From an uncultured Thermoplasmata archaeon (GTDB lineage: Archaea > Thermoplasmatota > Thermoplasmata > Lutacidiplasmatales > UBA184): a stretch of DNA of 64,000 nucleotides. Each line of letters starts with the position of its first letter. The stretch's first letter is position 1. Below the pieces are notes generated by a model. The model was not told the origin of the DNA and searched no databases. It saw only the letters and a program-made list of their open reading frames with translations. Shown piece after piece: positions 30,776 through 54,587 of the stretch. Location: NCBI GenBank assembly GCA_963708255.1, contig CAVPSE010000005.1:182347-246346 (forward strand), written 5' to 3'. Both the position numbers and the translations under genes were made by a program.

Positions 30776-30810
30776 GAAGACCCCCGGTGGCGCTCGCACC
30801 GAATTTCCGC

Positions 30811-34772: not shown

Positions 34773-34954
34773 GTCCGTCCATGTTCAGACCGGGGCCGGC
34801 GTCCGCCCGAGCGGGGCGTGATCCCGGTCCAAGGGCTCGATCCCTCCGGAAGCCGTGCGACCCCGATCCATCTCAGCACGTTGCACCCCCGGTCAAAGCA
34901 GATGAACTGGTTAGATGCGGGGCGAGGGACTTGAACCGTCGGGCGGCTCAAATA
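34773..34954 (-). repeat. att-like repeat A: degenerate copy of the tRNA-Leu 3' end plus trailer (long form, about 180 bp, shares extra upstream homology with repeat G)
   Basis: Minus-strand reading ...GAGCCGCCCGACGGTTCAAGTCCCTCGCCCCGCATCTAACCAGTTCATCTGCTTTG... versus the tRNA ...GGGTTCAAATCCCTCTCCCCGCATCGAACCCATTCATCTAGG. No complementary 5' acceptor strand upstream. Confidence 0.6.
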
Positions 34955-35356
34955 CTGTAGAAAACGCGTTTTGCTGTCCGTCTTCCCGTCCCCACGAAGC
35001 ACCCTCTTCCGAGCTACGGCTCGGATCGCCATTCAGCTACTCCCTCTCGGGGTTCCGATCGCTGAAGCCGCCCGGCCCGATTGGCCCCCGGAGACACCCC
35101 TTCTCGTAGGGATCAACTTGCCCAACGGCAGGCGGAGCCCTACGAGGGTGGGCTCACCCCCCGCAGAAACTCAGGCGCGACCCGCGGGCCTCCCGTCCGC
35201 CCACCCCAAGGTCTACCTGGCACCCCGGACAGCCTTCGGCCCGCTCCCAAAAGGATCCAGCTCCGCCGTGGTCGACCTCGTTGGGGTCGCCATGTCACTT
35301 ACTTGGCACTAACAATTAGGGTTAGGTTTAAATCACTCGCCCAAGTGGACTCCACT

Positions 35357-35788
35357 ATGGAAACCCTCCAGAAGCTGACCCGTCGACAGCTGGAAGCCCT
35401 CCGAGCGGTCGTCGTCAAGGAGACTCCTGAGAAGGGAGTCTCCCTCAAGCTCATCGCCTCCACGATGAAGGTCAGCCCCCCCTCCGCCCTCGCCCATCTC
35501 ACCCCCCTCGAGGAGCTAGGGCTGGTAGAGCGCTATCGGGGGAAGAGTCGCCTCACCGAGCGCGGCCGGGGGACGTGGCTCGAGTACCAGCGTCATCACC
35601 GCGTTGCCGAGACGTTGTTCGGGAACCTGGGCCTAGCTCCGGACGCCAGTTGCTCCGCTGCGCGGGAGATTGACCTTGCGATCTCGCACCGCACCGTGGA
35701 AGACGTCTGCCGGGCTGCCCAGCACCCCGTGACCTGCCCGCACGGCGAGCCCATCCTCCCTTGCCATTCCTCGAACAGAGGAAGCTAG
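35357..35788 (+). CDS. DtxR/MntR-family metal-dependent transcriptional repressor
   Basis: METLQKLTRRQLEALRAVVV... (HTH) plus ...LTERGRGTWLEYQRHHRVAETLFGNLGL...HPVTCPHGEPI, a DtxR-type metal-binding and dimerisation region. Confidence 0.7.
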   Translation: METLQKLTRRQLEALRAVVVKETPEKGVSLKLIASTMKVSPPSALAHLTPLEELGLVERYRGKSRLTERGRGTWLEYQRHHRVAETLFGNLGLAPDASCSAAREIDLAISHRTVEDVCRAAQHPVTCPHGEPILPCHSSNRGS

Positions 35789-35818
35789 CCCGACGGCTCG
35801 ACATAGAGGACTTCGCAA

Positions 35819-36930
35819 ATGCAGAAGTGGACCAAGATCTGGGTCAGCGTAGCGATCGCTCTCGTGCTCGTAGGTGGGGGGGCGTACGCCTTCCTAACCA
35901 GCACGACCCCGACCAACCCGTGCGCCGGGGTCGCGACCGGCTCAACCTCAAGCGGATCCCAGGCCGCAGGAGTCGCCACCGGCCAGCTCGCCACCCCACC
36001 TCCCTCCTCGGTGGCCGCCCAGAAGAAGACGTCGGGCTCGATCCTCAGCCCTGGGGTGCGCACTCCGAGCGGTGGACCCAGAATGGCGACCGGTTCGGGA
36101 GTGATCGAGGTCGTCGCCGCGGAGAACTTCTGGGGAAGCCTCGTGTCCCAGCTCGGTGGGAATGACACCTCCGTCCTGAGCATCGTTTCGGATCCGAACG
36201 CGGACCCCCACGAGTACGAGGCCAACACCTCCGACGCCATCGCGATCACCAATGCCCAGTTCATTATCGTCAATGGGGTGGGGTACGACGATTGGGCCCT
36301 CCAGCTCATCTCGGCCGAAACGACCCCCAACCAGCTCGTCCTGAACGTAGGGGATCTGAACGGGGTCACCGTCGGTGGAGGGGTCGTGAGTGGCAACCCC
36401 CACCAGTGGTACAATCCCCCCTACGTCAACCACACCATCGCCGCGATGTACGCGGATCTCGTGCAGATCGCGCCGTCCGATGCGGCGTACTTCCAGCACA
36501 ACTATGGGGCGCTGAACGCGTCGCTCGCCTCCCTCTACGGAGAGGCCACGAGCATCAAGACGCACTTCGCCGGCACCGTCGTAGCGGCCACCGAGGACAT
36601 CTTCGTGTATCTTGCCAACTTCACGAACCTCGACCTGGTCTCCCCCCGGAGTTCATGGAGGCGGTCGCGGAGGGGAACGATCCGCCGGCCCAGAGCGTCG
36701 TGACGTTCCAGTGTCAGCTGGAGAGCGGGAGCGTCAAGGTGCTGGTGTACAACGAGCAGACCGTGACACCTATCACGATGAGCCTCAAGTCGATCGCGGC
36801 CGAGAACAACGTCACGATCGTGGGGGTTACCGAGACGATCCAGCCTCCCGGCGTGTCGTTCCAGACATGGATGGACGCTCAGTACCTGCAGCTCTACAAC
36901 GCACTGAACGCAGACCAGTTGGGCCAATGA
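35819..36930 (+). CDS. Metal (Zn/Mn/Fe) ABC importer substrate-binding protein, TroA/ZnuA cluster-9 type; frameshift near 36640
   Basis: N-terminal TM/signal MQKWTKIWVSVAIALVLVGG plus a Ser/Thr linker. Core GVIEVVAAENFWGSL...DPHEYEANTSD...NPHQWYNP (TroA-like His/Asp ligands). C-terminus in ORF 36292..36930. Confidence 0.65.
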
Positions 36931-36973
36931 GGGCACGGCATGAGTCCCCAGGGACCTGGGGCACGAGCCCTCG

Positions 36974-37784
36974 ATGGGATGGGTCGCCTTGAGCGGCGAT
37001 CTGGTCATTCAAGCGGATCACCTGGAGGTGGGGTTCCGCGACAAGGTCGTCTGGCGCGACGCCCAGTTCGACGTCCGGCGCGGTGAGTTCGTCGCCGTGA
37101 TCGGCCCGAACGGGGCCGGCAAGACGACGCTGTTCCGGATGCTCCTCGGCCTCCAGCGACCCCTGGCCGGGCTCTCAGGCGTCTTCGGAGGCGTGCCCCG
37201 GCGAGGAAACGACCGGATCGGCTACGTTCCTCAGCGCCACTCCATCGACATCGATACCCACATCGACTGCGAGAGTTTCGTCCGTCTCGGCGTTACCGGG
37301 ACCCGGTGGGGGCCGGGGCTGGCCCGCCGGGAGGAGCGGAAGGCGGCGGCGAGCGCCCTGGAGGCCGTCGGTGCGACCGACCTCGCACCCAAGTGCATCG
37401 GTACCCTTTCCGGCGGGGAGCTCCAGCGGATATTCCTCGCCGAAGCGATGGTGGGGAACCCAGAGATGCTCCTCCTGGACGAACCGCTGTCAAACCTCGA
37501 CATCCGACGGAGCCGTGACCTGGTGGCGCTCGTCTACCGGCTGGTCCGATCCGCGCAACGTGACCACCCTCCTCGTGGCCCACGACATCAACCCCCTGAT
37601 CCAGTGCCTCGACAAGGTGATCTACATCGCCAACGGCCGGGTGGCCACGGGATCACCGGCCACCGTCCTCACTTCGGAGAGCCTGACGGCCCTCTACGGG
37701 GTTCCCGTGGAGGTGCTCCATGACTCTCGGAACAACATCGTGATCGTCGGCGGCGAGGAGAACGTCGGGGGGGAGCACGGATGA
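36974..37784 (+). CDS. Metal ABC importer ATP-binding protein (TroB/ZnuC-like); frameshift near 37540
   Basis: Walker A GPNGAGKTTLFRML; signature LSGGELQRIFLAEA; Walker B LLLDEPLSNLD. C-terminus ...TTLLVAHDINPLIQCLDKVIYIANGRV in ORF 37371..37784. Confidence 0.65.
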
Positions 37785-38687
37785 CGTTCGGGTTCAGCTG
37801 GAACCTCGTCACCGACCTGCGGGTCATGTGGCAGTTCGAGTTCATGCGCAACGCCTTCGAGGCGGGAACGATCATCGCCATCGTCGCAGGGATCATCGGC
37901 TACTTCGTGGTCCTCCGCCGGTCGGCGTTCGCCACGCACGCCCTCGGACATGTGGGGTTCTCGGGGGCTGCCGGCGCGGTCTTCCTCGGAGTGAACCCGG
38001 TCTTTGGGCTGCTAGCGTTCACCATGTCGGGGGCCGCCGGGATGGCCGCTGTTAGGGCGGCGGGCCGCGGCGCGGGACATGGAGATCGGCACGGTCCTCG
38101 CGTTCATGCTGGCCCTCGGGCTCCTCTTCCTGAGCCTGTACAAGGGATTCGCGACGGAGGCGTACTCGATCCTCTTCGGAGAGGTCCTGGGGATCAGCGA
38201 CGCGGGTGTGATCTTCACCCTGGAGGCGAGCGTCGTCGTCCTGGCCGTTCTGCTTCTGATCTACCGCCGCCTGCTCTTCGCTTCCCTCGACGAGGACGTG
38301 GCGGAAGCGAAGGGGCTTCCGATGCTGTCCCTGGGCCTCGCGTTCATGCTCCTGCTGGCGGTGTCGATCTCGATCGCGGTCCAGGTCATCGGCGTTCTGC
38401 TGATCTTCGCGCTGATGGTGACCCCCGCGGCGACGGCCGTTCGACTGACGCGGAGCCCGCTCACGGCGATTCTCGTATCCATCTCCGTCGCGGTCTTCTC
38501 GGTCTGGCTCGGTCTGTCAATCGCCTTCTTCTCGGTCGAGCCGTATCCCGCGAGCTTCTTCATCGTTACGACCTCGTTCCTCCTCTACGTAGCGGTTCGC
38601 GGCGCGGGCGCGCTTCGGGGACGGTTGGTGCCTCGGACGACGCGCGATGTGCATGCCGGCGCGTCGATGGGACGGGGTCCGGATTAG
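37781..38687 (+). CDS. Metal ABC importer permease (TroC/ZnuB-like); frameshift near 38060
   Basis: MTFGFSWNLVTDLRVMWQFEFMRNAFEAGTIIAIVAGIIGYFVVLRR... then ...LAFMLALGLLFLSLYKG...LIFALMVTPAATAVRLT in ORF 38079..38687. Confidence 0.65.
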
Positions 38688-38958
38688 AATCGACGGATGC
38701 CTAGGCCTGGCCCGCCAGCCGGGGACGGTCCGTCGCGGCCGCCGCCCGGGACCGGGAAGAAGCTTCGGGGAGAGGACGGAGGAGGAACCGAACGGCCCCA
38801 TCGGCTCCCCGAGGCCCCGACGGTGCGGGTCTGCCTGCCGTGAGAGATCGCACCTAACGGCGAGGTGCGGACCCACAGTGGGGTGGGCCCCCCTACCTTG
38901 GGCGTTCGGGACATAGGATGCGAACCGCCGGAGTGTTCGAACTCGTCCTACGCCGTGC

Positions 38959-39053
38959 TCAAACCAGATGAAATGGTTGGGTACGGCGAGAGGTATTCGA
39001 ACCGCCCGGCGGTTCAAATATCGTGAAAGGTGGACCTGCCGAAGGGGTCCACC
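38959..39053 (-). repeat. att-like repeat B (tRNA-Leu 3'-end/trailer copy) ending in a strong hairpin between convergent genes
   Basis: ccagatgaaatggttgggtacggcgagaggtattcgaaccgcccggcggttcaaatatcgtgaaagg followed by GGTGGACC-TGCCGAAGG-GGTCCACC. Confidence 0.55.
39029..39053. terminator. Perfect 8-bp stem hairpin between the convergent metal-permease and ClC genes (possible bidirectional terminator)
   Basis: ggtggacctgccgaaggggtccacc sits between the 3' ends of 37781..38687(+) and 39088..40564(-). Confidence 0.35.
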
Positions 39054-39087
39054 GCCAGGCGGTCGGTCATGGGGCGTGGGAGGGGCC

Positions 39088-40564
39088 TCAGTCCGATTCG
39101 AGGTCCGGAGGGTGGAAGAGGCGGGCATACTCTTCGCGATGGGCGGGACTATCAAGGCGGGTGTGGACCTGGGCCCGGTAGAGGTGGTTCTTGCCGGTCG
39201 CGATGTACGCGATGAAGATGGCGATCATGGCGGGCGCGAGTATCTCGTAACTCCCCGTCATCTCGACCGCCATGACAAGGACCGCGAGGGGGGCCTTGGA
39301 AATCCCACCAAAGAAGGTCATCATCCCCACGATCGCGAAGGCGGAGATGGCCCCGACATCGAAGAAGTTCGGCAGGAGCGAGTGGAATGCGGCACCGACG
39401 CTCGCCCCGATCATCGATCCGATCACGACCGAGGTGCCGAACAGGCCCGCGGCTCCCCCACTCCCCACCGTGAGTGATGTCGTGACCATTCGAAGGGGGA
39501 TCGCGACCGCCAAGGCAACCAACCCGAGCGGAACGAGCGCTGTGAGGCCTACTTGGCCCAGCACGACGGCCTGTACGAAACCGTAGCCCACATTTACCGC
39601 GGACAGCGCGGCGAAGTGCCCCTGCCAAGGCAGGAGGAAGTAGACCGCGAGGATCGCGAGCCCGGAGAGCCCGGTACCGACCGCGACCCGTACGGACAGA
39701 GGCCATGGAAGCGCCGCGAACCGTCGATGGGTGCCCCAGAACAGGCGCACAAAGACGACCCCGACCCCGGCGCACAGCAGCCCGAGAAGGACGTAGAACG
39801 GGAGTTGAACGGGATTCCAGTCGAGGTTGGCGGGGGTCCCGAACAGGGTGCCGAAACCGTAGATCGAGGCGTAAATCGAGTAGCTTGCTACCGAAGCGAT
39901 GATCGAAGGCACGAACACCGCGGGTTCGAAATCGCCCGTGTACATGATCTTCGGCCGCGAAGATCGCGCCTCCGAGGGGCGCACGGAAGATCGCACCCAC
40001 TCCGGCTCCGAGGCCCGTGGCAAGTGCAATGCGCCTGTCCCGGTCGCCGAGACGGAGCTGATCGGCCCACCAAGACCCGAACCCGGTGCCGATCTGGGAG
40101 GTTGGCCCCTCGCGTCCTCCGCTTCCACCCGACCCGAGGGTTAGCGCCGAGGCGATCATCTTCAGGATCGGGACTCGGCCACGGATCTCCCCGCCCCGAT
40201 TGTGGAAGGAGTCGATCGTCGCGTCCGTTCCGTGTCCGGCGACCTCGGGCGCCAGATATTGGGCGATCAGGCCGGCCCCGAGGCCCCCAAGCGCCATGAT
40301 GACCGGGAGCAGAAGGATTCGGGGGAAGCTGCTCGACCAGATGACGATCTGGGCCCCCGAGGCCCCCGGGTAGGGATAGCCGATGCCGACGATGTAAGCG
40401 AGGAAGAACTGGGTGGACTCGCTCCAGAGGAAGAAGAACAATGACGCCCCGACGCCCGCCACGATTCCGATCGGAACCGCGACGGCGGCCCAGTGGGCGA
40501 GGTCCCGGGACGCCCCGGACCACCCCGTCTGACTGGCGGTCCGTAGAGCATTCCACAGCCGCAT
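39088..40564 (-). CDS. ClC-family voltage-gated chloride channel / H+-Cl- antiporter; frameshift near 39960
   Basis: GSGGREGP (selectivity filter GSGIP-like) and GGAIFAAE in ORF 39152..40564. C-terminal TM helices ...GTPANLDWNPVQLPFYVLLGLLCAGVGVVFV...GMMTFFGGISKAPLAVLVMAVEMTG in ORF 39088..40128. Confidence 0.65.
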
Positions 40565-40687
40565 GGGCCATTGCCGGTACTCCGAAACAGCTGAGGCGTG
40601 AGGCGAATCGGGAGCTCGATGGAGCCGGAGGCCGATCCGGCGCGTCGGGTGTCGACACGATGTGACTCTCGCAGGTCCCGTGCGGTC

Positions 40688-43258
40688 CTAAGACCCTAGT
40701 GGTTGGCCAGCAGGGAGGTCGAAGCCGTCGAGGACCTTCCCCGGTGGCGCGACGGGAAAAACCATCGCCACGGGTATCGTGCAACGAGGGCTGCTGCCGG
40801 GGACCGACGCATTGTTCTCTGCCTCGCCTGGTCGCTCCACCGGTACGCCCATCGCTTTACGAGGTCCGCGACGAGCATCTCGGTGGCCGCGTACCCCCAG
40901 ATCGCCAGGATACCACAGGGGAGGAACGGCGCTCAGGAGCCAGCCCTCGAAGGCGAGGAGGGATGCGATGAGTTGCGTCCCGAGCACACTGAACACAAGC
41001 AGATTGGCCGGACGGGACCTCCAGAAAGGCCCCTCGGTCCGGGTGAGGAATATGACGAAGTGGCCTGCCACCGAGAGCTTGAGGTAGATCAGCGTCTGGA
41101 GGGCGCCGCCCGAGATGTGGAAAGTGCCGATCGCGAGCAGGAGGAGGAGAAAACTGGAGGCCACCCCCGTGACGCCAATGGAGGTCGCCACTCGCATGAC
41201 GCGTCCCATCCGCCACGAGACCGGTCTGGGGGAGATCGGGGTTCGGTCGTACGCGATCGCCAGGATCGCCCCGTCGTTCAGGAGGGCGATGAGCACGATC
41301 ATGATGGCCGTCACGGGGAAGAACCCGAGCAGGAGGATCGAGAGCGTGATGAACATCAGCAGTCGGATGGTCTCCTCGATCCGGTAGATGGCGTAAGAGG
41401 TCATGCGCGCGAACGTCTGTCGCGCTTGCTGGATCGCCGTCAGAATGACGCCCAGTCCCGGGGCCGTCAGGACGACGGCCGCGGCGGCGCGGGCGGCGTC
41501 CGTCGCCCCCGCGACCGCGATGCCGACATCCGCCTTCTTCAGCGCCGGGGCATCGTTGACCCCGTCCCCGGTCATCCCGACGATGTGGCCCTGCCGTTGG
41601 AGCTCTTCGACGATGGCGTACTTGTGTTCGGGAAAGACCTGGGCGAACACTGTGGCGGATCCGACTAAGCGGGCGCGTCGCTGCGGGTCGGCTTCACGAG
41701 TCCACTCCTCGGGAACCCTGACCTCCCCGACAAGGCCTAGCTGCTTAGCGGTCTCCCGCGCGATCGCAGCCTGGTCGCCCGTGACCATCTTGACTTGGAC
41801 CCCGAGCTCCCGAAGGCCCGCCAGCACCTCCGTCGAGTCAGGGCGGAGCGGATCGAACAGGGGGATAACTCCGAGGTACCGCCATGGGCCATCCCCCTCA
41901 GCCTTGGCGACCCCGAGGGCCCGGAAGCCACGGCGCGCGATCTCCGCCACGGCGTGATCGAGCGCCGCTGTGAGGCTGGCTGTTGACCCAACGAGGGCCA
42001 GGATGGCCTGGGGGGCCCCCTTGCTCACATGGATTCGCCGGCCGTCGGAGGTGCGAACCTCGGCCTCGGTCCGCTTCCGCACCGGGTCGAACGGGTCGAA
42101 CCGGACTCGCTCGATCCCCTCCGCAACGTTGGGGGCCCCCCGGGGCGCCCAGGATGGCGTCATCGATCGGGTCGTGGTCTTCCACCCGGGATGCGAGCAC
42201 GGCAGCCTCCAGCAGCTCGGACCTTGTCGCGTCACCAAGTGGCAATGGGTCCCCGACCGTCAGCTGGTTCTGGGTTAGGGTGCCCGTCTTGTCCGAGCAG
42301 AGCACGTCGACGCCCGGCGAGCTCCTCCAGGGCCTCGAGCCGGCTCACAATGGCCTTTCTGCTGGCGAGGGAGCGGGCGCCCACCGCCATCGTCACGGAG
42401 AGCACGGTCGGCATGGCAACGGGGATGGCCGCGATCGTCAGGACCAGGGCAAACTGCAGCGACGTCAGCAGGTCGACGCCACGGAAGAGCGAGACAGCCT
42501 CGATGACGATCGCGAGCCCGATGGCCAGGGCGATGAGCGTGTCCCCGATCCCTAGGACTGCTCGCTGCAAGTGGCTCACCGAGTGAGCCTCGGCCACGAG
42601 CTGGGCGGTTCGACCGAGGAATGTCCTGGCCCCGATCGCGGTCACGCGAGCCGTACCCTCACCCCGTCGGACGATCGCCCCGGAATACGCCGAGTCTCTC
42701 GGCCCCCGGGTCACGCTCAGCGACTCCCCGGTAAGGGCCGACTGGTCAAGCTCGAGGGTCGCGCCTGGCAGGAGCACGACATCAGCCGGCACGATGTCGC
42801 CCATCCGGAGGCGAACGATGTCGTCGGGGACGAGCTCCCCGGCTCGGGAGGGAGAGCCAGTGGCCGCTCCGTAGGACCCGGGCCTGCGGGGCTAGGTGGG
42901 CCTTCAGCGCGGCGACCGCGTTGCCTGCCTGGTACTCCTCCCAGAATCCAACGACGGCGTTTACGAGCAACAGAGTTAGGATGATCGCAAAATCATCCCA
43001 GTGCTGCAAGATGGCGGCCAGGACCAGGGCTGCTTCGATCATCCAGGGGATCGGCCCCCAGAAGTAGCCCAAGAGACGCCGCCATCCACTCACCTTTCGT
43101 TCAACGACTTCGTTGAACCCTTCCCCGGCCCGCCGAGTGGCGACGTCGGAGGCGGAAAGGCCGAGCGGGCCGGCCGAAACTTTCGGGGGGCGGGTCAAGC
43201 CGGTGGGAGGGGGTGTCGCCGCGCCGCCGGCGGAAGCGGGTTTGCCGTCCCCCGACAC
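40688..43258 (-). CDS. P-type ATPase (plasma-membrane H+/cation ATPase-like, P3A-like); split into four ORF fragments by frame changes
   Basis: N-terminus in 42782..43258 (GFNEVVERKVSGWRRLLGYFWGPIPWMIEAAL). TGES and M4 in 42232..42804. DKTGTLT phosphorylation motif in 41898..42305. MTGDQAAIARETAKQLGL and GDGVNDAPALKKADVGIAVAG in 40688..42238. Confidence 0.6.
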
Positions 43259-46191: not shown

Positions 46192-46360
46192 CACTCGCGT
46201 CCGCCCGGGCGGTCACCCCGCTGCCGGCCGGATTCCATCGGCCCTTGATGGAGTCACGCTCCGGGTCGTGCTCCGCGTCGTGCTCGAGGCGCAGGAACGG
46301 GTAGAGGCGGGGAGTGGACTCGCAGGGGGCCATGAACACGTTCCACCCCACGGTCAGGCG

Positions 46361-46427
46361 ATACGAAATGGTTGGAATCCGGGGGGAGGAACTCGAACTG
46401 CCAGTCGGCTCAAATCCCCTCGCGGGG
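46361..46427 (-). repeat. att-like repeat D (diverged tRNA-Leu 3'-end/trailer copy)
   Basis: gatacgaaatggttggaatccggggggaggaactcgaactgccagtcggctcaaatcccctcgcgggg. Confidence 0.45.
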
Positions 46428-46996
46428 ACGGCCTGGAGCACCTGGGCGGTCGGGAGATCCACCCGGTCAGCCGGCCCTCGCCGCTGTACCCGGAGCTCCC
46501 CCTCACCTGTCACCAGCAGAATGTGCTCATCTCTCGGACCGACATAATGATTCAATCATGAGTGCTGCCGATCGGATGTCCAGCATCCCAGCCCACCAGT
46601 CTACCATTGCGCTTCTCCAGCGGCTAAAGCCCAAATCGAAGAACTGGGACGACTTCCTGCTCTCTTCAGGTCGCCTTCTTGGGCACCTTCCCGACGTTCG
46701 TAAGGCACCCTTGGCGGGCGAGCCCTGAGTTGGATGTGGCGCCTCTGAGGGATATGCCCGAGCGCTGGCGTTGGAAGGTGGCCGGCGGTCACCGAGGATC
46801 TACCGCATCGTCCAGGGTTTGCCAGAATTCGAAATGTTCGAGACGCGCTATCAGGTGTACGCTCGACTCCGTCGCTATCTGGCCGGCAAGCCCTGACTCG
46901 TAAGGAGCCGTTCATTGGCGCCGACGCCATGGGTGTAACCAGAGCGGATCTCAGACAACTAGCCCGCGAGGGCTCGGGCACCTTTCACGGCACTCG

Positions 46997-47070
46997 CAAA
47001 GTAGATGAAAGAGTTCGATGCGGGGAGAGGTATTCGAACCGCCCGGCGGTTCAAACATCGCGGGAGGTGG
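46997..47070 (-). repeat. att-like repeat E (tRNA-Leu 3'-end/trailer copy)
   Basis: caaagtagatgaaagagttcgatgcggggagaggtattcgaaccgcccggcggttcaaacatcgcgggaggtgg. Confidence 0.55.
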
Positions 47071-47244
47071 CCCGCGCCGGAGTTTTCTCGCAGGGCCCCC
47101 CGGGAGATCGTCGTCCTAGGTCGGACCGCTTGGAGTGGGCGGTTCCCAACCAAAACCTGCGCAGTCCGCCTCCACCGAGAGACGGCACCACCATCGTGAA
47201 GAGGGGGGGGTATGCGTATATAGGGAGGGTGTGTATGAATGCAT

Positions 47245-47546
47245 CCATGGCGATATCGGCGAGGGCCCCGCGGCCGGTCTTCTCTCGGCCGCGGGCCAAT
47301 CCCACGCTCGAGACGATCGAGTACATCCGAGCCGCCCTTCAGGGGTCCGATGGGCCCGTGAGCCGGAACCGGCTCCTCGATCAGCTCGCGGAATGGGGGC
47401 ATTCAACCTCGCGTCAGAGCCTCAACGCGGCGGTTGCCTTCCTGGCCGCCGACGGAAATGTTGTCGAGGGAAGCAAAGGGATACTCTGGGTTCCCCCGGC
47501 GTCGGCCCAGCTACGTGAGATCATCCTCACCGGCGAGCGGCTCTGA
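47245..47546 (+). CDS. Small winged-helix-like protein, paralog of 34373..34714
   Basis: MNASMAIS...TLETIEYIRAALQGSDGPVSRNRLLDQLAEWGHSTSRQSLNAAVAFLAADGNVVEGSKGILW. A gggaggg SD-like stretch 6 nt upstream of the ATG. Confidence 0.5.
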
Positions 47547-47593
47547 CGCATCCGGGCGCCGAGGAGATCGTTCTCTCCCCGTCGGCGGCCTCG

Positions 47594-47899
47594 GTGCTCC
47601 GGTCTCTGGAAGGCTCCACGACGAAGGACGCAGGCTCGATCGCCCATCGGGTCCACGAGCTTAGGAAGGTGCTTCTGGCCGACTGCCTCCACGGAGAAGT
47701 CGTCAGGAAGCGCTCGATTCCACGCCCACTCCGGGACCGGTACGGGGTCTCGAACCTTTTCGTGGAGGACCTCCCGTCATTCTGGAGACTCCTCTACACG
47801 GTGGTTCATGAGGGCCCCGAGCGGCACGTGGTCGTTCTCGAGATCGTAGACCATCGCGTCTACGACCGCTGGTTTCCGGGAAGAGGACGTGGTCGATAG
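47594..47899 (+). CDS. RelE/ParE-superfamily toxin-like protein
   Basis: ...IPRPLRDRYGVSNLFVEDLPSFWRLLYTVVHEGPERHVVVLEIVDHRVYDRWF matches the RelE/ParE C-terminal pattern (…LYRV…V.VL.I.HRKD.Y). Confidence 0.5.
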   Translation: MLRSLEGSTTKDAGSIAHRVHELRKVLLADCLHGEVVRKRSIPRPLRDRYGVSNLFVEDLPSFWRLLYTVVHEGPERHVVVLEIVDHRVYDRWFPGRGRGR

Positions 47900-48003
47900 C
47901 GCCCTTCGGATCCGAACCTTCTCCCGGCGGCGAAGTTCGCGCCCTGTCCGTGCGGGGGGCCCGCCTCGAGCGTCCTTGGGCTCCTTTCACCTTCCTCGTC
48001 GCG

Positions 48004-48079
48004 CTCAAAGTAAATGAATGGGTTCGATGCGGGGAGAGGGATTCGAACCGCCCGGCGGTTCAAATATCGTGAAGGAAGG
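48004..48079 (-). repeat. att-like repeat F (closest copy of the tRNA-Leu 3'-end/trailer)
   Basis: ctcaaagtaaatgaatgggttcgatgcggggagagggattcgaaccgcccggcggttcaaatatcgtgaaggaagg. The minus strand has ...GGTTCGAATCCCTCTCCCCGCATCGAACCCATTCAT. Confidence 0.6.
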
Positions 48080-48274
48080 CCCATCGAAAGGGTCCGTTGC
48101 GCGGTGTGCCGGGGCGGGCGCAATTGACGGGATCGGGACCCGCGGCCAGGGCGGTCGCGAGAGTCTTTCCCGGTGTACCGCTTAGGGCCTTTCCGGAATA
48201 CGGCAACCAATTCGCTCCTCACGCGCTAGGTGGTCCCAAATCAGCTGTCCGGGGTCCCCCGGTGAAACCGCCGA

Positions 48275-48625
48275 TTAGACTGGACCGACTCGGGAGGCAT
48301 CTTCCTCGGCGAGGGCGGCTCGCAATCGCTTGAGTTTGTCGTAGAACTCGGGAAGTCGGAAGCCGAACCCTATGAAGACCAGGACGGCCCCTCTCCGATA
48401 GAAGACTCCCCGCCAGAGCTCGCCGACGTGGAGTGAGAACAGGCCCTCAGGAGCCACCCGCTGTCGTTGACGCAGTTCCTCGGTGTACCAGCCCCGTGCT
48501 GATGTGACTGGCGAATCGGAGACCGAGAGCTCGCGGAAGGCCGTAATGAAAACGTCCCGCACCTCCGGGGGCAGAGCTAGGAACTCGATGTCCGCCTCGT
48601 CGATGCTCTCGAGGGTGAATGGCAC
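48275..48625 (-). CDS. RelE/ParE-like toxin (type II TA module)
   Basis: ...LFSLHVGELWRGVFYRRGAVLVFIGFGFRLPEFYDKL. The upstream small gene overlaps its start. Confidence 0.45.
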   Translation of the reverse strand: MPFTLESIDEADIEFLALPPEVRDVFITAFRELSVSDSPVTSARGWYTEELRQRQRVAPEGLFSLHVGELWRGVFYRRGAVLVFIGFGFRLPEFYDKLKRLRAALAEEDASRVGPV

Positions 48626-48867
48626 GGCTGGCTCAGTACCGGCTGCGCGCGGCTTTGCGCGATCAGATGCTCGATCGGATGGGACTTCCCCTCCCGGATG
48701 CGCCGGGCCAGCTCAGCTGCCGCCAGTTGGGTCGGGTGGGCCACAAGAAGCCCGCGAATGACCTCGTCGTACGTGGAGCCGCCGGTCTTGAGGCTCTCAA
48801 GGAGCTTCCGCGTCTCGGCTGATACGGTAATTGTGGTAGCCGCCATAGTCCGATCCAATTGACTCAA
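48577..48867 (-). CDS. Putative antitoxin of the adjacent RelE/ParE-like toxin
   Basis: MAATTITVSAETRKLLESLKTGGSTYDEVIRGLLVAHP... is antitoxin-like. The 3' end overlaps the toxin start by about 48 nt. Confidence 0.4.
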   Translation of the reverse strand: MSQLDRTMAATTITVSAETRKLLESLKTGGSTYDEVIRGLLVAHPTQLAAAELARRIREGKSHPIEHLIAQSRAQPVLSQPCHSPSRASTRRTSSS

Positions 48868-48987
48868 TGGCTATCAGCCACTTAACTCTGTCGCGGACCC
48901 GGTCGCGCAAACGCTGGGCTCCCCGACGTCGCCAGGATCGGCTGGGCACCGGCCGCTAGGATTGGATTGACCGTCGCCTCCTAAAGG

Positions 48988-49186
48988 TCCGTCCATGTTC
49001 GGATCGGGGCCAGGGTCCGCCAGTGCGGGGCGTGATTCCGGTCCACGGGCTCGATCATTCCGCAGGCGGTGCGGGACGGACGCGATCCGTCTCAGCACGT
49101 TCCACGCCGCGGTCAAAGCATTTGAAATGGTTAGATGCGGGGGGAGGTACTCAAAACGCCGGGCGGGTCAATAATCGTGGGATACG
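48988..49186 (-). repeat. att-like repeat G (long form; shares about 190 bp with repeat A, including upstream gtccgtccatgttc...ggggcgtgat.ccggtcca.gggctcgatc)
   Basis: Core caaagcatttgaaatggttagatgcggggggaggtactcaaaacgccgggcgggtcaataatcgtgg plus an extended upstream block alignable to 34773..34890. Confidence 0.55.
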
Positions 49187-49319
49187 ACACATCTCGACGT
49201 ACCCTGCCCAGGTATCCGTCGTCGCCGGACACGTTGGCGCCGGGAACCTGTCGGGCCCGGGGGTGGGTCCGTCCGTGGTACCGACGATAGGCCCCCCGGG
49301 CCCTCGCCCTGGGAGGATC

Positions 49320-49790
49320 CTACCCGGGGCAGAATCCTGAGTATTCGGTCGGGTAGAGTTGGATCAACACAAGGTTCAGCGCGTTCACGTCGACGTAACC
49401 TGGCGCCAGGAATCCGTTTTGGTCCGCGTTGGTGTTGATGTTCTGCTGGATGAGGTAGTCGAGACTCGACTGGGGGATACCTGTCGCGTTCGACACCGCA
49501 GGGACCTGCCCGTAGGCGTCCGAGGGGGTGATGTCCGGGTCGACACCTGAGTCGGAAGCCGTGGCGTTCCGGGGTTCGAAGAACTTGGGAGAACTGATGT
49601 TCTCCGCGATAAGCTTCGAGCCGACCTCGGTCCCGTTGCATATCATCGGACTTCCGATGGCCCCATTCGGGTTCTCTACCTGGTCGATGGCGGCCAGCGT
49701 GATCGGATACACTCCCATCAGGAGCACCGCGCAGATCGCGAGCAGGACGACGAGGGGTCGCACGTGCTCAAAGAGCGCCCTAAGCTGCAT
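49320..49790 (-). CDS. kdpC: Potassium-transporting ATPase subunit C
   Basis: N-terminal TM helix followed by ...AENISSPKFFEPRNATASDSGVDPDITPSDAYGQVPAVSNATG..., the KdpC pattern. Immediately downstream of kdpB. Confidence 0.8.
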   Translation of the reverse strand: MQLRALFEHVRPLVVLLAICAVLLMGVYPITLAAIDQVENPNGAIGSPMICNGTEVGSKLIAENISSPKFFEPRNATASDSGVDPDITPSDAYGQVPAVSNATGIPQSSLDYLIQQNINTNADQNGFLAPGYVDVNALNLVLIQLYPTEYSGFCPG

Positions 49791-49793
49791 GGT

Positions 49794-51932
49794 TCAGTGG
49801 ATCACCCAGGTTAGCACGATGTCGAGGGCCTTGATGGCCACGAACGGGAGGACCGCTCCGCCCACCCCATAGATCGCCATGTTGCGGAGGAACGTCCGCT
49901 CCGGGAGTTCCGGGCGGAACCTCACGCCGCGGAATGCGAGTGGGATGAGGGCCGGTATGACGGCAGCGTTGAAGATCATCGTGGCCAGGATCGCGGTCAC
50001 GGGGCTGTGCAGTTGCAGGATGTTGAGCTTCTGCGCGGCCACACTGGCGGGCAGCATCGCGGGGAAGAGCGCGAAGTACTTCGAGACGTCGTTCGTGACG
50101 CTGAACGTTGTGATGGCCCCCCGCGTCATCAACAGCTCCTTGCCCGTCTCGACCACCTTGGTCACTTTGGACGGGTCCGAATCCAGATCGATCATGTTCG
50201 CTGCCTCCCGGGCCGCAGCGGTGCCCGAGTTCATCGCGATCCCGACGTCCGCGATGGCCAGCGCGGGGGCATCGTTCGTCCCGTCCCCCTCGACCCCCAC
50301 GACGTGGGCCTGGGCCTGTTCCTGCTTGACCCGGGTGAGCTTGTCGGCCGGCTTCGCCTGGGCGATCACCTCCGCGATACCTGCCTCGTCGGCGATGACC
50401 CGGGCCGTGATCTCCGTATCGCCCGTGACCATCACGGTGCGGATCCCTGTCGCCTGGACCGCCGCCAAGCGCCCCCGGATCCCGGGCTTCAACTGGTCCC
50501 GGAGGTCGATCAGCCCGACGACCTTGGACCCGACGGCAACGGCCAGCGGAGTGCCACCTTGTCGGGAAATCTCCTGCGACTTCCAGAGCAGCTCGCCCCG
50601 ATTGACCTCGGGGGCGATGGCCAGCACCGCATCGACGGACCCCTTGACGATGCGATCCGGGGCTCCGGATCCTTCGAGTTCGACGAGCTTCTTCCAAACC
50701 GGCCCCCGAGCCACGTCGGCCGAGACCATGGGAAGTTCCGGACGGCGCGCGGGATTCGAACCGAAGTTGGCCAGAAGCTCCACGCCGCTGAGACGGGTCT
50801 CCGCGCTGAAGTCAATGGTCGTTCCGGCCAGGACCCGGGGGGTAAGGGGAAGGGCCAAGCCCCGAGCCGTGGCCACCTCCGCGACGGATCGTCCCTCGGG
50901 GGTCCGGTCCAGCGCCGACGCCAAGAACGCGGCCTGGCCGACGTCCGCCTCAGTAAACCCTTCGAGGGGGATGAACTGCTTGACACTGCGCTGTCCCTGG
51001 GTGATCGTGCCCGTCTTGTCGAGGATGAGCGTGTCGACGTCCCCCGCGGCCTCCACAGCCTTGCCGGACTTGGCGATCACGTTGGCCCGCCCCACGCGCG
51101 TGATGCCCGCGATGCCGATGGCAGGCAGCAGCCCTCCCACGGTCGTCGGCATCAGCGCTACGAGGAAGGAGAGAAGGATGGCGAGGTCCACCACGAAACC
51201 GAGAGAGTCGGCGAGAACGAGGAAGCTTCCCACGACCAGGATGAAGATTCCAGTGAGGCCCACGAGGAGAAGATTGAGGCTGACCTCGTTCGGGGAGCGC
51301 GGTCGGTGGGCTCCCTCGACCAGCTTGATCATGTCGTCGAGGTAGCTGCGACCGGACTCCGCGACGATCCGCATGACCAGCGCATCGGAGGCCAGAGCGG
51401 TCCCTCCGATCAGGGGATCTCCCACTTTCTTCACGACGGGGGCGGACTCGCCCGTCATGAGCGATTCGTCCAAGTACGCGGTGCCTTCGAGGACTACTCC
51501 GTCCCGGGGAACGATTTCCGGGGGCCGGAGCCGCACCACGTCTCCCGGAACGAGGCTCTTGGACGGGACGACGATCACAGTCCCATCCACGACCTTCCTC
51601 GCCAGGACGTCCTGCTCGAGCCGGCGGAGGGAGTCTACACGGGCTTGGCCCTGGATCTCGGAGATCGACTCGGCCAGGGTCGCAAACCAAACGGTCAGAA
51701 CGAGGATCAGGGTCAGGGCCACGTAGATCCACTGCGGCTCGGTGGTCAGACCCGCGAAGGCTTCCGGATCGAGGGACATCGCGCCGGTGATCACGGCAGT
51801 GGCCTCGACGATGAGCATGATGAGGTTCGTCCTCAGGAGGTATCGAGGGTCGAGCTTGCGAACGGACTGGACTACGGCCCGTTCGATCTCCCCCCGACCA
51901 AACCCACTTTCCCTCGTCTTGTGGTCCGACAT
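49794..51932 (-). CDS. kdpB: Potassium-transporting P-type ATPase subunit B
   Basis: 712-aa uninterrupted ORF with LDKTGTITQG phosphorylation motif, MVTGDTEITARVIADEAG, GDGTNDAPALA and KdpB-type TM topology. Confidence 0.85.
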   Translation of the reverse strand: MSDHKTRESGFGRGEIERAVVQSVRKLDPRYLLRTNLIMLIVEATAVITGAMSLDPEAFAGLTTEPQWIYVALTLILVLTVWFATLAESISEIQGQARVDSLRRLEQDVLARKVVDGTVIVVPSKSLVPGDVVRLRPPEIVPRDGVVLEGTAYLDESLMTGESAPVVKKVGDPLIGGTALASDALVMRIVAESGRSYLDDMIKLVEGAHRPRSPNEVSLNLLLVGLTGIFILVVGSFLVLADSLGFVVDLAILLSFLVALMPTTVGGLLPAIGIAGITRVGRANVIAKSGKAVEAAGDVDTLILDKTGTITQGQRSVKQFIPLEGFTEADVGQAAFLASALDRTPEGRSVAEVATARGLALPLTPRVLAGTTIDFSAETRLSGVELLANFGSNPARRPELPMVSADVARGPVWKKLVELEGSGAPDRIVKGSVDAVLAIAPEVNRGELLWKSQEISRQGGTPLAVAVGSKVVGLIDLRDQLKPGIRGRLAAVQATGIRTVMVTGDTEITARVIADEAGIAEVIAQAKPADKLTRVKQEQAQAHVVGVEGDGTNDAPALAIADVGIAMNSGTAAAREAANMIDLDSDPSKVTKVVETGKELLMTRGAITTFSVTNDVSKYFALFPAMLPASVAAQKLNILQLHSPVTAILATMIFNAAVIPALIPLAFRGVRFRPELPERTFLRNMAIYGVGGAVLPFVAIKALDIVLTWVIH

Positions 51933-51942
51933 TGTAGTACCT

Positions 51943-53564
51943 CTACCCGAAGATCCCGAGGATCAGGAACGGCAAGAACGCCAGGGCCGTCAGCACGAAT
52001 GTCACTCCGATCAGGGTGAGGGTGAAGGGCCAGCCGTCGGTCCTGATCGGCTCGGGCGTGTCCCGGCGGTCCTTGGTGGCAAAGGACCCGGCGATGCCCA
52101 TCATGAAGACGATGGGAGCGAACCGCCCGACGAGCATGACGATCCCCGTCGACACGTTCCAGAAGGGGGTGTTCGCGACGGTCCCCAGGTAGTCGGATCC
52201 GTTGTTCGCCGATGCCGAGGTGTACTCGTAGAACACTTGGGTGAAACCTCCCGCCCCCGAATGGGGACCGAGGATACCGGCGACGTTCCCGCTACTGTAG
52301 GCGATCGCGGCGGGTACCAGGATCATCAGGGGGTGGATGACGAAGGTCAGGACGGCGAGCTTCACGTCCCACCCTGAGATCTTCATCCCCAGGAACTCGG
52401 GCGTCTTGCCGACCATCAGGCCGACCATGAACAGGGTGAGGAACGCGTAGATGACGAGCGTCATGAACCCGACGCCGGACCCCCTGGGATCGCCTGGACG
52501 AACATGAACGTGAACAGGCTGGCCCCAGTCCTCGGGGAAAGCCCCGAGAGGTACGCATTGGTAGACCCGGTATCGCTGGAGATCGAGAAGAACTGGAACA
52601 GGACGCTGCCGAAACCCCCGAACCGCGTTTCGAGCCCGACGGGTCCGCTCACCGTTGTGAGGGAATACGCCAGGAGGGCCACGAACGGCGCGAGGACGGC
52701 CACCATGAAGGCCCGGCCGCGGCCCCTTCCCACCAGCTCCCCGTACGCGAAAATGAACGCTAGGGGGATGATGAGCATCAGGATGAGATAGACCAGGTCC
52801 GAGATGCCGTTCGGATTGGCGAAGGGGCTCCCCAAGTTCGCCCCATAGTACCCTCCGCCGTTCTGCCCCAGCTCCATGATGGAGTCGAACCCCGCCAGTG
52901 GCCCGACGACGAAGGTCTGGTGACCCCCGCCGATCAGCCCGGTGGTCAGAGTTCCGTTCAGGGTCTGGGGGACCCCGACCGCCATGAGAAGGAGGGCGCT
53001 AACGAAGGAGATCGGTAGCAGGATGGTGACCAACGACCGGAAGAAATCTGCGTAGAAGTTCCCGATCCCCTTTCCCTTCTGGATGAAGGGGCGCAGGAAG
53101 GCGAGTCCGACTGCGATGGCCGAGGCCGGAGCCACGTACTGGTTGAGCATGAGCACCAGCTGGGAGGCGACAGTAAGGGCTTGATCACCGGAGTAGTGCT
53201 GGAGATTCGTGTTCGTGATGAACGAGGCGCTGGTGTTGAAGTTCAGGTCCCACGAGAACGGAAGCAGCCCCCGGGGATTGCCCGGCAGCCACCCCTGGAG
53301 GCCCAGGACGACGTAAGTGAAGATGGCGAAAGCCGCATCGAGGAGCACGAGGGCGATGACATACTCCTTCCAATCCATCGATCTCTTGGGGTCGATGCCC
53401 GCCGCCCGGAACACGAGATTCTCGGCCTTCGAGAGGAAGCCCTCGAATGGACGAGGGGTCCCTCGGATCAGGTGGACCAAGTACCTTCCGAGGTAGTATC
53501 CGAGCAACAGGGTGAGGCCGAGCGCCAGCGCCAGTAGCTCGGCATCCGCTACCCCCTCGATCAT
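51943..53564 (-). CDS. kdpA: Potassium-transporting ATPase subunit A (K+ channel-like subunit); frame change near 52460
   Basis: ORF 52461..53564 (MIEGVADAELLALALGLTLLLGYYLGRYL...NTNLQHYSGDQALT...) continues in ORF 51943..52464 (...MTLVIYAFLTLFMVGLMVGKTPEFLGMKI...). The kdpABC gene order is conserved. Confidence 0.75.
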
Positions 53565-53740
53565 CGTGCTCCTCGGGAACCGTTGGTCCGCGAAGGCGGA
53601 GTCACCCGGTGGGCCCGGGAGTCCGCACGTTCGGCTGCGCCGAAGTGGTCGTCAGCCGGGTCCCACGCCGGGTCCGTCGACCCGGTTGGCATGGCTGCTG
53701 GTGCTGGAATTGCGAACATCGGGCCACCTCGGTCGGCGCT

Positions 53741-53930
53741 AGTCGGTGCGCCCGGAGTGGCGCAGGAGGCGGTAGAGGTTCTGAACGGACGGAATCTGCT
53801 GGAGATTCAGGGCAGAGCCGTCGATGGCAGAGGATCGGACTTCTCCGCGAACCACAGGGCCTCGGACGGGCACGGGTGGATTCACGCACGTATTTGGAAC
53901 CTCTGTCCCTAACAAGAAGCGAGTAGGAGG
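53741..53930 (+). repeat. Conserved noncoding element X, copy 2, between the kdpA start and the tRNA-Leu
   Basis: Alignable base for base with 31799..31991 (same orientation). Lies about 175 nt upstream of the kdpA start on the opposite strand. Confidence 0.6.
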
Positions 53931-54502
53931 TACCGAACCGGTTCGCAGGTGGCGGCGTCACCCTCCTCCACGTCGCTGTCCTTCGTCGTCTTGGGCCCGC
54001 GATAAGTCCGACGATCTCCACGGGAGCCTCCGTTCGCTACACGGCCGACGCGTTCGGTCAACACGGGGGCCCCCGAGGGTCCCCCCGGGCGTCGCAACGT
54101 ATGCTCCCGCGTAAGGTGGCGGGGTCTCTCCACCGGTAGGTTCGTGGCTGCCGCGAGCCCCGGACCCCCCGACGACCGCCGCCGACGGGAATGGGAATCG
54201 GCCCGCCCTCGATCCTGAGTGGCATCTCTCGGGCCGAGCACTCCCGCGACCCAGCCTAACCCCGCCGAGGGAGCCACGTCTCGGCGGAGCGATGCCCCCG
54301 CCCAACCCGTCCCGCCCCGCGGTCACCGGTTCTGCAGTCGGAGCCCGCGTGCAGAGCGCGGAGAGCGAACGCACCTGCCAGGGCCGGGAGGGCTCCCGAC
54401 ACTTGGTGGTCAATGCCGAGGCTGGAAAGGGACCGTAAGACCCGAGGTGTCCGCGGGTCGAACTCGTTCCAAGGGGTTCCCAGCCTAGATGAATGGGTTC
54501 GA

Positions 54503-54587
54503 TGCGGGGAGAGGGATTTGAACCCACGAACTCCTACGAGACCAGACCCTGAATCTGGCGCCTTTGGCCAAGCTGGGCGATCCCCGC
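54503..54587 (-). tRNA. tRNA-Leu (anticodon CAG), class II with long variable arm, no encoded CCA
   Basis: Minus strand GCGGGGA-TC-GCCC...; 7-bp acceptor GCGGGGA/TCCCCGC plus discriminator A; 3-bp D stem; anticodon stem CCAGA/TCTGG with loop TTCAGGG (CAG, G37); about 14-nt variable arm; T arm GTGGG-TTCAAAT-CCCTC. 85 nt. Confidence 0.75.

Follow-up and report, generated by a model that had tools for sequence, protein, structure and literature searches.

Copies of a tRNA-Leu(CAG) 3' end and the integrase-less modules between them in an uncultured Thermoplasmata archaeon

What kind of process leaves a series of copies of the 3' end of a tRNA gene on the downstream side of that gene, all in the same orientation and with small groups of cargo genes between them? 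The question is raised by a 64,000-nucleotide stretch of DNA (the window) from an uncultured Thermoplasmata archaeon of the UBA184 lineage (assembly GCA_963708255.1, contig CAVPSE010000005.1, positions 182,347 to 246,346), in which such an array follows the tRNA-Leu(CAG) gene. The modules bounded by the copies can be as short as 0.55-1 kb, often hold just a toxin-antitoxin (TA) pair and lack an integrase; therefore the best reading, which we hold to be probable though by no means secure, is that the tRNA gene is a hotspot accreting integrase-less cassettes moved in trans by a tyrosine-type recombinase encoded elsewhere.

Repeats behind the tRNA-Leu(CAG) gene

A single tRNA gene, tRNA-Leu(CAG), was found in the window by ARAGORN and confirmed by Rfam. 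Copies of the repeat were located by a repeat search and then with an nhmmer profile built from the copies without the tRNA. Eight direct copies of a unit of approximately 105 nt were obtained, all on the minus strand and 3' of the tRNA; array and tRNA together span 31512-54587. In the 64 kb window the E-values of the eight copies ranged from 9e-30 to 2e-18. The 3' end of the tRNA, with about 47 nt of its trailer (54456-54524), was the ninth match of the tRNA-free model (E=1.7e-11), which places the resemblance between repeats and tRNA, proposed in an earlier note made from the sequence alone, above chance level. No further same-strand matches were found by nhmmer in the window, and the weak plus-strand matches at the repeat loci represent the palindrome of the unit aligning with itself. 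Going outward from the tRNA, the features are:

54503-54587, minus strand: tRNA-Leu(CAG), intact target gene, attachment (att) site side attL (ARAGORN; Rfam tRNA, 42.2 bits)
54456-54502, minus strand: tRNA trailer, T-rich (TCGAACCCATTCATCT...), homologous to the repeat trailers (nhmmer model built without the tRNA)
49086-49190, minus strand: repeat G, arm, tRNA 3' core (16/22) and trailer; hairpin lost
47977-48083, minus strand: repeat F, core 21/22, perfect palindrome; best-kept copy
46971-47072, minus strand: repeat E, core 20/22, perfect palindrome
46327-46425, minus strand: repeat D, core 16/22, arm of the GGGATTTGAGCC type, hairpin decayed
43610-43714, minus strand: repeat C, core 18/22, hairpin weakened
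38930-39036, minus strand: repeat B, core 18/22, perfect palindrome
34866-34969, minus strand: repeat A, core 20/22, hairpin weakened
31512-31604, minus strand: repeat c31, the eighth copy, core 17/22, hairpin lost; most diverged copy

Seven of these copies had been listed in the earlier note and all seven are real, but the number is eight, c31 lying outside the range that the note considered. The note had also ascribed a perfect hairpin to each copy. The exact form, GAACCGCC-N-GGCGGTTC, is confined to three of the eight (B, E and F); A and C retain a weakened form, and D, G and c31 have lost the hairpin. Because hairpins were lost without compensating changes, the scars are taken to decay neutrally. 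The additional homology of approximately 120 bp that had been noticed upstream of A and G measured 141 nt at 82% identity (34719-34859 versus 48934-49073).

No repeat was scored as a tRNA between 31 and 55 kb, and the statement that none of them is a tRNA gene stands. Since Rfam matched only the true tRNA, the repeats were also ruled out as tRNA-like or known-family RNAs. There was no sign that the hairpin is a structure of the RNA level, mismatches appearing as T·G on either strand.

A second duplication was noted in the same region. A 199-nt direct duplicate (31791-31989 and 53734-53929, 85% identity) has its first copy just before c31 and its second at a distance of 0.5 kb from the tRNA, on the downstream side. 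Read on the minus strand, the duplicate contains a small open reading frame (ORF) of 72 aa at 53739-53957, which in the other copy has a stop codon. The duplicate had no family match, the positions of its copies relative to the repeats are not equivalent, and it looks like a small coding remnant.

Architecture of the att unit

In the unit of approximately 100 nt an arm is followed by the last 22 nt of the tRNA and then by a T-rich trailer. The arm is CACGATATTTGAACCGCCGGGC or TTCGGGATTYGAACCGCCGGGC, and the TTYGAACC within it repeats the T-loop sequence in inverted form. The 22-nt core, GGTTCRAATCCCTCTCCCCGCA, extends from the T-loop to the discriminator base of the tRNA. Across genomes the conserved part comprises approximately 42 nt, (GAT)ATTTGAACCGCC-G-GGCGGTTCAAAT-CCCTCTCCCCGCA. 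Its conservation stops exactly at the last base of the tRNA, which is expected if an inserting element must rebuild the tRNA. The left half of the conserved part is absent from the tRNA and forms with the T-loop sequence a palindrome of 12 bp, extended to 15 bp in units of the GGGATTYGAACC subtype. Variation is seen in the 7 nt at the centre (GCCGGGC, GCCCGGC, GTCGGGC, CATGCAG, CACGGGC, CACTGAC and others), and the arms are constant.

The T-rich trailer is conserved within a lineage but not between lineages: TCGAACCATTTCAT occurs in the window and in the related locus L015, GTTTCCTATTATT in L006/L008/L014 and TTTCCAATATT in L005/L011. We infer that the rebuilt tRNA depends on each insert for its terminator and processing context, and that the trailer provides these. 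The trailer of the window tRNA (54456-54502), which was also found behind the tRNA in L015, probably serves as terminator of the tRNA and probably came with the last inserted module.

A crossover within the 7-nt palindrome centre, with the tRNA as partner, was considered and ruled out: the tRNA has GTTCGTG where the units have GCCGGGC, and in L006 a module (module N, see below) was inserted beside a tRNA that has no left arm.

A few units end in a 3' end other than that of tRNA-Leu. In addition, extra hairpin units of the form TYGAACC-N7-GGTTCRAATCC were seen 6-40 nt from the tRNA or from a repeat (L005 1514-1560, L011 4296-4347, L004 121-170, L022 10985-11035, L026 14160-14210 and 16860-16910, L018 1765-1815). 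Some of these are followed by non-tRNA-Leu 3' ends, for example CCCAGACCCGCA and CCGTTCCCCTCA, and they may be att sites from other tRNA loci.

Restriction of the repeat to one tRNA locus

An exact degenerate pattern combining hairpin and core was run against one genome for each of 185,579 species. It was found in 14 stretches, all from Thermoplasmata metagenome-assembled genomes (UBA184, Candidatus Lutacidiplasma and similar), with one or two matches per genome. A haloarchaeal origin of the window was ruled out on this ground, its host being a soil Thermoplasmata of high GC content. In six of the 8-kb loci retrieved in this way the tRNA-Leu(CAG) gene was present, and the unit lay 0-4 kb downstream of it in the same orientation. 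Further relatives were obtained by gathering 80 metagenomic loci via the aldolase gene that precedes the tRNA. In the relatives eight units were found in 111 kb downstream of the tRNA versus none in 681 kb elsewhere, the unit being absent from 169 kb upstream of the tRNA and from 512 kb of more distant related loci. The palindrome motif TYGARCY-N5-9-RGTTYRA occurred only in array context (1.13 Mb searched). The repeat is specific to the tRNA-Leu(CAG) locus across the lineage, and the scatter over many unrelated sites by which the earlier note would have recognized a generic repeat was not seen in the related loci. Array-bearing genomes include the window genome, L005-L008, L011, L014, L015, L022, L026 and L029.

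The limits of the variable DNA were drawn from the flanking genes:

54644-55462, minus strand: DeoC-family aldolase, conserved proximal flank, then lrp and glnA (Pfam, synteny)
22023-23174, minus strand: Fe-ADH gene, first gene of the conserved distal flank (Pfam; synteny in L096, L097, L099, L030 and L036)

Between the tRNA and the Fe-ADH gene the content differs among L015 and L096-L099. In L030 and L036 the Fe-ADH homologue lies only 0.45 kb from the tRNA, which represents the empty site; because of this, the variable region is 23.2-54.5 kb, with the repeats occupying the tRNA-proximal 23 kb. The island is therefore larger than the approximately 20 kb (34773-54587) originally proposed, as repeats extend out to 31512 and variable DNA reaches the Fe-ADH gene at 23174. 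It had also been expected that lrp-glnA-fba would adjoin the tRNA in genomes with an empty site. In fact these genes lie on its 5' side in all genomes compared, and an empty site is recognized by Fe-ADH following after 0.45 kb.

Insertion at the tRNA 3' end

Direct evidence for the course of events came from cassettes that occupy different positions in related genomes. Cassette alpha (0.73 kb), which is homologous to an L015 module with a DUF7557 protein and a ParE-like toxin, adjoins the true tRNA in L007, L008 and L014. In L006 the same cassette adjoins a repeat copy 4.2 kb downstream, and a new module (N), consisting of a single gene for a 1139-aa PKD-domain protein, is located between the tRNA and that copy. 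The junctions of cassette alpha match to the base between L006 and L007/L008/L014 (slash, junction):

L014, tRNA to alpha: ...CCCCGCA/GTTTCCTATTATTTCTAG
L006, scar to alpha: ...GAACCGCCGGGCGGTTCAAATCCCTCTCCCCGCA/GTTTCCTATTATTTCTCG
L006, tRNA to new module: ...CCCCGCA/GTTTCCTATTATTAATATG

A like pattern was observed with cassette beta (ParE toxin) when L005/L011 were compared with L026/L004. Insertion at the tRNA 3' end pushes older modules outward, and the central idea of the earlier note, an integration hotspot in which later arrivals displace earlier ones, is borne out by the junctions of these two cassettes in relatives.

The cassette between repeats E and F of the window also occurs in L015, which, with 91% identity in the aldolase, is the closest relative found. 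The two blocks (window 48038-47013, L015 12718-13737) are 84.8% identical in nucleotide sequence, and their proteins are 96% and 87% identical, as compared with 78.4% for 7 kb of flanking core genes, the proteins of which are 62-94% identical. The homology begins inside the core of F and ends at the end of the core of E; the shared block is the unit that recombination in the core would be expected to yield.

An array of a different type was noticed in L110 (9778-12125), another Thermoplasmata metagenome-assembled genome. The 0.9-kb cassette with a winged helix-turn-helix (wHTH) protein and a RelE-like toxin that is known from the window (module 3, see below) is found here between tRNA-Arg(CCG) and a decayed, approximately 57-nt 3' fragment of tRNA-Arg(CCG). 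A second such fragment follows after another 1.35 kb. It follows that arrays of small cassettes also occur behind tRNA genes other than tRNA-Leu(CAG) and with att sites other than the palindromic ones.

Search for a recombinase

No integrase family was found with Pfam in the tested ORFs of the window (15.4-63.5 kb), nor with Pfam and PHROGs in individually tested ORFs of related arrays. A bulk Pfam scan of 99 ORFs from related loci gave no integrase family with two or more members, and a jackhmmer search with the SSV1 and lambda integrases against 11,738 ORFs of at least 50 aa, taken from all loci and the window, produced no match. Pfam, PHROGs and jackhmmer are thus in agreement with the earlier note, which had recognized no integrase gene. 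The note had named integrases of the pNOB8 and SSV types as duplicating the tRNA 3' end; SSV-type int(N) or int(C) fragments beside the cores were not found by jackhmmer with SSV1 Int. The repeat flanks were likewise ruled out as remnants of SSV-type int genes, as they have no conserved reading frame and no homology to SSV1 Int.

Annotated genes fill the island and leave no space for a gene of 250 aa. The eight modules of the window and approximately 20 bounded modules in relatives (0.55-8 kb) are all without an integrase, including the two most recent insertions shown, module N of L006 and the L026 module. An integrase-bearing element with the same att site was not found in the 106 related loci or in scans of viral contigs.

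Modules and cargo

The repeats divide the array into eight modules, beyond which further variable DNA extends to the Fe-ADH gene:

49191-54455, minus strand: module 1 (5.3 kb), kdpA 51943-53651 (split over two frames), kdpB 49794-51932, kdpC 49320-49790 (Pfam KdpA, E1-E2_ATPase, KdpC); also 0.8 kb beside the tRNA without assigned content
48084-49085, no strand assigned: module 2 (1.0 kb), TA-like cassette; weak DUF7557/VapB-like antitoxin match at 48577-48870 (minus)
47073-47976, plus strand: module 3 (0.9 kb), winged-helix protein 47235-47546 and RelE/ParE-fold toxin at about 47555-47899
46426-46970, no strand assigned: module 4 (0.55 kb), small ORFs only, without family match
43715-46326, plus strand: module 5 (2.6 kb), two esterase or alpha/beta-hydrolase-like ORFs, both weak (Pfam)
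39037-43609, minus strand: module 6 (4.6 kb), ClC channel 39088-40140 and P-type ATPase 40688-43357, the latter split over three frames (Pfam Voltage_CLC, Cation_ATPase_N, E1-E2_ATPase, Hydrolase)
34970-38929, plus strand: module 7 (3.9 kb), DtxR-type repressor, ZnuA-like binding protein, ABC ATPase and ABC-3 permease (Pfam)
31605-34865, plus strand: module 8 (3.3 kb), lactonase, ArsR-type wHTH, small ORF and a paralogue of the cassette wHTH (34373-34714)
23175-31511, no strand assigned: further variable DNA without recognisable repeats, with a PhoU/MazE paralogue, ABC-2 transporter, PadR and Gly-rich repeat protein (Pfam)

By Pfam, AlphaFold and Foldseek the cargo list of the earlier note (kdpABC, RelE-like toxins, esterase, ClC channel with P-type ATPase, DtxR with a metal importer) is essentially correct. 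For the two proteins of module 3 there was no Pfam or PDB sequence match. Their structures were predicted by AlphaFold with pLDDT values of 94 and 83, and in Foldseek the toxin resembled YoeB/ParE/HigB and its partner resembled wHTH regulators.

The pair encoded at 47235-47899, a winged-helix protein of 99-103 aa and a RelE/ParE-fold protein of approximately 115 aa, belongs to a widespread two-gene family, mostly of Thermoplasmata (262 and 215 protein clusters at E<=1e-5), that has no Pfam model; it is likely an unnamed TA family. In one lineage the pair lies 6 kb from tRNA-Leu(GAG) without repeats, which is uninformative, and in another it forms part of a TA cluster with no tRNA within the 20-kb locus.

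L013, L014 and L022 likewise carry the lactonase block of module 8 on the downstream side of the tRNA; relative to the tRNA, the window has it in inverted orientation. The corresponding stretches of lactonase, ArsR and small ORF are 32275-34163 in the window, 3384-5437 in L014, 12782-14752 in L022 and 5998-7998 in L013.

One repeat copy was also seen in L010 (1-6281), a contig of low GC content (0.59). There it adjoins an IS66 fragment, an N6/N4 methylase with an MTaX1/HNH partner, and a UvrD helicase paired with a PD-(D/E)XK nuclease. Defence-type genes therefore also travel in the arrays.

Both kdpA and the P-type ATPase gene are split over reading frames. The core gene glnA (56223-57607) also lies in three reading frames, with two frameshifts near short C runs, and its orthologue in L015 (460 aa, 80-94% identical) is intact. 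Because a core gene carries two such frameshifts, the split genes of the window are probably indel errors of the assembly, and they therefore say nothing about the age of the modules. Pseudogenes as a sign of age were ruled out on this ground, the glnA frameshifts lying near short homopolymers. The earlier description of the elements as old and decayed is accordingly judged less likely, the more so as the most recent insertions in relatives are also without an integrase.

Proposed mechanism and alternatives

According to the explanation that we favour, each cassette would carry an att site of approximately 100 nt, made up of arm, tRNA 3' core and trailer. Recombination inside the common 22 nt, together with a few trailer bases, would join the tRNA 3' end and trailer of the cassette to the 5' part of the chromosomal tRNA, so that the tRNA would stay functional. 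The old tRNA 3' end would be left at the far side of the insert, preceded by the arm of the cassette. Repeated events, possibly also insertion at internal copies, would yield the arrangement tRNA-[module-scar]n. The recombinase would most likely be a tyrosine-type integrase provided in trans by the chromosome or by a helper element, and the palindrome may have a role in the reaction.

Several observations do not sit easily with this mechanism. The identity of the core to the tRNA, taken outward from G to c31 (16, 21, 20, 16, 18, 18, 20 and 17 of 22), shows no gradient by distance from the tRNA, and simple accretion at the proximal end only is therefore not the whole story. Approximately half of the related loci with variable DNA 3' of the tRNA have no repeats at all (L018, L020, L021, L036, L038 and L096-L099), which means that other processes also shuffle the region. 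No recombinase was found among the ORFs searched in the window and the related loci, searches that were based on ORFs in an assembly with frameshifts and included a bulk Pfam scan blind to a single-member integrase. Neither the unit nor the core had a match in scans of viral contigs, and a free attP form, circular or borne by a plasmid or virus, was not found. Finally, of the source genome it was the 64-kb window that was searched, and the genome-wide confinement of the repeat is deduced from relatives.

The reading of the earlier note, in which plasmids or viruses with their own SSV-, pNOB8- or pTN3-type integrase inserted in tandem and were reduced to cargo and att scars, with TA pairs kept because their loss is lethal, is possible, but we consider it unlikely. 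Tandem integration followed by loss of the integrase is known in archaea (PMC8371274), and this reading could account both for the neutral decay of the scars and for the over-representation of TA pairs among the smallest modules. It would also fit the wHTH/RelE pair that stands alone between tRNA-Arg and its own 3' fragment, an att site of different type, as a passenger left behind by different elements. However, decay would have had to remove every integrase from the eight modules and from about 20 in relatives, even from module N and the L026 module, without leaving int(N)/int(C) fragments beside the cores; cassettes of 0.7-1 kb have the same precise ends in several species, and the pseudogenes that spoke for decay are probably an assembly artefact. 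We are still more doubtful of an integron-like mechanism, in which the hairpin would fold in single-stranded DNA as attC does, the T-loop half-site of the tRNA would act as attI, and a recombinase encoded elsewhere would capture cassettes without need for long sequence identity. It is suggested by the cassette sizes and TA content, which resemble those of chromosomal integrons, by the absence of an integrase from every cassette, and by the form of the units: most copies are perfect palindromes of 12-15 bp about one central base, the only position to differ (G or C) between some copies, the 7 nt between the arms TTYGAACC/GGTTCRAA vary and the arms do not, and in some cases a 3' end that is not from tRNA-Leu follows the hairpin. 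Against this, an IntI-like gene is absent both beside the array and among the tested ORFs (window 15-64 kb), the core GGTTCRAAT departs from the integron consensus GTTRRRY, the cassettes hold operons in both orientations, and resident copies lose the hairpin without compensating changes, the changes in the spacer being too few for a covariation test. Moreover, the tRNA 3' end is conserved in full as far as the discriminator base, as classical attP x attB exchange would predict.

Could homologous recombination alone have produced the arrays, a few ancient integrations having left scars and gene conversion and uptake from relatives having shuffled the modules via the approximately 100-nt repeats and the tRNA? 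The repeats are long enough, and the lack of a positional gradient in their decay, the inverted lactonase module and the repeat-free variable content in many relatives, where other processes must act, all agree with such shuffling. Nevertheless, no junction of new arm, core and old trailer can arise without an initial, precise event at the 3' end of the tRNA, the existence of two or more arm subtypes and of several spacer variants implies many independent att-bearing donors, and the tRNA-identical block is kept exactly to the tRNA end across species; as a sole explanation it appears very improbable. That the unit is a generic dispersed element (a miniature inverted-repeat transposable element, a repetitive extragenic palindrome, a terminator repeat or a transposon end with a long target duplication) resembling the tRNA by chance is hardly conceivable. 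A palindromic, intergenic sequence of about 100 nt would suit such an element, but eight of eight copies have one orientation on one side of one tRNA, the remaining 41 kb of the window and 681 kb of related DNA away from the downstream side of the tRNA contain none, the pattern gave just one or two matches per genome across the 185,579 species representatives, and the match to the tRNA (E=1.7e-11) is not one of chance. Module ends lack terminal inverted repeats, on which ground a transposon with a long target-site duplication was ruled out; IS66, IS630 and IS4 genes are sporadic in relatives.

Comparison with known systems

Cis-mobilizable elements (CIMEs) of Streptococcus are att-flanked islets without recombination genes that are moved by a tandem-integrated integrative and conjugative element. 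Xer-dependent modules, such as the integrative mobile elements exploiting Xer (IMEX) and the pdif modules of Acinetobacter plasmids, are small and integrase-less, often hold TA pairs, and are bounded by short palindromic tyrosine-recombinase sites at which the host enzyme moves them. Together with integron cassette arrays these are the closest functional analogues of the present array, which departs from each of them in at least one defining feature. As in CIMEs, the modules described here are att-flanked, have no integrase, are accreted at the 3' end of a conserved gene and presumably need for their mobility a recombinase from another element. In contrast to CIMEs, the host is archaeal, the target is a tRNA gene, the cassettes are far smaller and more numerous, and no helper with the same att site was found in the 106 related loci or the viral-contig scans. 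Xer-dependent modules share with those of the window small size, lack of integrase, frequent TA pairs and palindromic sites, but here a tRNA 3' end forms part of the sites, which are all located behind a tRNA gene.

Chromosomal integrons likewise consist of a long array of small cassettes with many TA pairs, the palindromic cassette end shares a short core with the insertion point, and cassettes are common to genomes at different positions. Unlike in integrons, there is no adjacent IntI or attI (the tRNA is flanked by aldolase, lrp and glnA; tested ORFs at 15-64 kb), multi-gene operons (kdpABC, znu-like, ClC with ATPase) are present on both strands, and the insertion point is a tRNA gene that needs rebuilding. 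Sites of the attC type are imperfect palindromes with R''/L''/L'/R' boxes and a GTTRRRY core; the present unit holds a palindrome, but its core GGTTCRAAT lies outside GTTRRRY.

In the tRNA islands catalogued by Islander an integrase and a length of at least 2 kb are required per island, the T-loop/T-stem region is a common crossover sublocation, and arrays of three or more accounted for 4 of 3919 islands (PMC4383910). The present locus agrees with such islands in having an intact tRNA followed by displaced 3' fragments in direct orientation (eight, all on the minus strand and 3' of the tRNA), an identity block that begins in the T-loop/T-stem region, and newer inserts nearest the tRNA. It differs in that no module carries an integrase, that modules 2, 3 and 4 (1.0, 0.9 and 0.55 kb) fall below 2 kb, and that eight scars stand in a row. 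With SSV-type 'suicidal' integrases attP lies within the int gene, so that each insert is bordered by int(N) and int(C) fragments. Gene capture by such enzymes in Sulfolobus and Thermococcales (PMC7253208) duplicates the 3' end of an archaeal tRNA and leaves the captured DNA in the chromosome, as would be the case here. The cores of the window differ in that jackhmmer with SSV1 Int found no int(N)/int(C) fragments beside them and in that the DNA flanking the att sites is non-coding, with no conserved reading frame.

Insertion into tRNA genes is textbook knowledge, which cannot be said of arrays this long that consist of such small cassettes and contain no integrase. They would escape the standard programs for finding islands, in which every island must have an integrase and a length of at least 2 kb. 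The locus is a hotspot throughout a lineage of abundant, uncultured archaea of acid soils, and its cargo looks adaptive, with genes for potassium uptake (Kdp), a metal importer and its repressor, a chloride channel and an ion pump, esterases and TA pairs. The conserved att unit offers a simple sequence handle for finding arrays in metagenomes. If the cassettes move in trans, a recombinase and a compact att site of approximately 100 nt are to be found, which would be of interest for archaeal genome evolution and possibly as a tool. A bolder thought, to which we give little credence, is that soil Thermoplasmata possess an integron-like gene-capture platform with a tRNA gene as docking site, in which the hairpin site would derive from the inverted T-loop copy and a recombinase encoded elsewhere would insert and excise cassettes at the T-arm of tRNA-Leu and other tRNAs. 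If true, this platform would be a cassette system separate from bacterial integrons and from classical integrative elements.

Other observations

Two paralogous MazE-like genes with PhoU domain (20860-22026 and 23805-25133) are located on both sides of the Fe-ADH gene, where the variable region has its distal edge. Very GC-rich repeats with a 9-bp period, at 27892-31441 (minus strand) and 3946-8648, encode Gly-rich proteins of GGx type that had no Pfam match. In the second of these regions, 4027-8648 contains a 2.56-kb tandem duplication with 70-96% identity, and a relative of the Gly-rich proteins is encoded inside the L015 island (L015 17068-19161).

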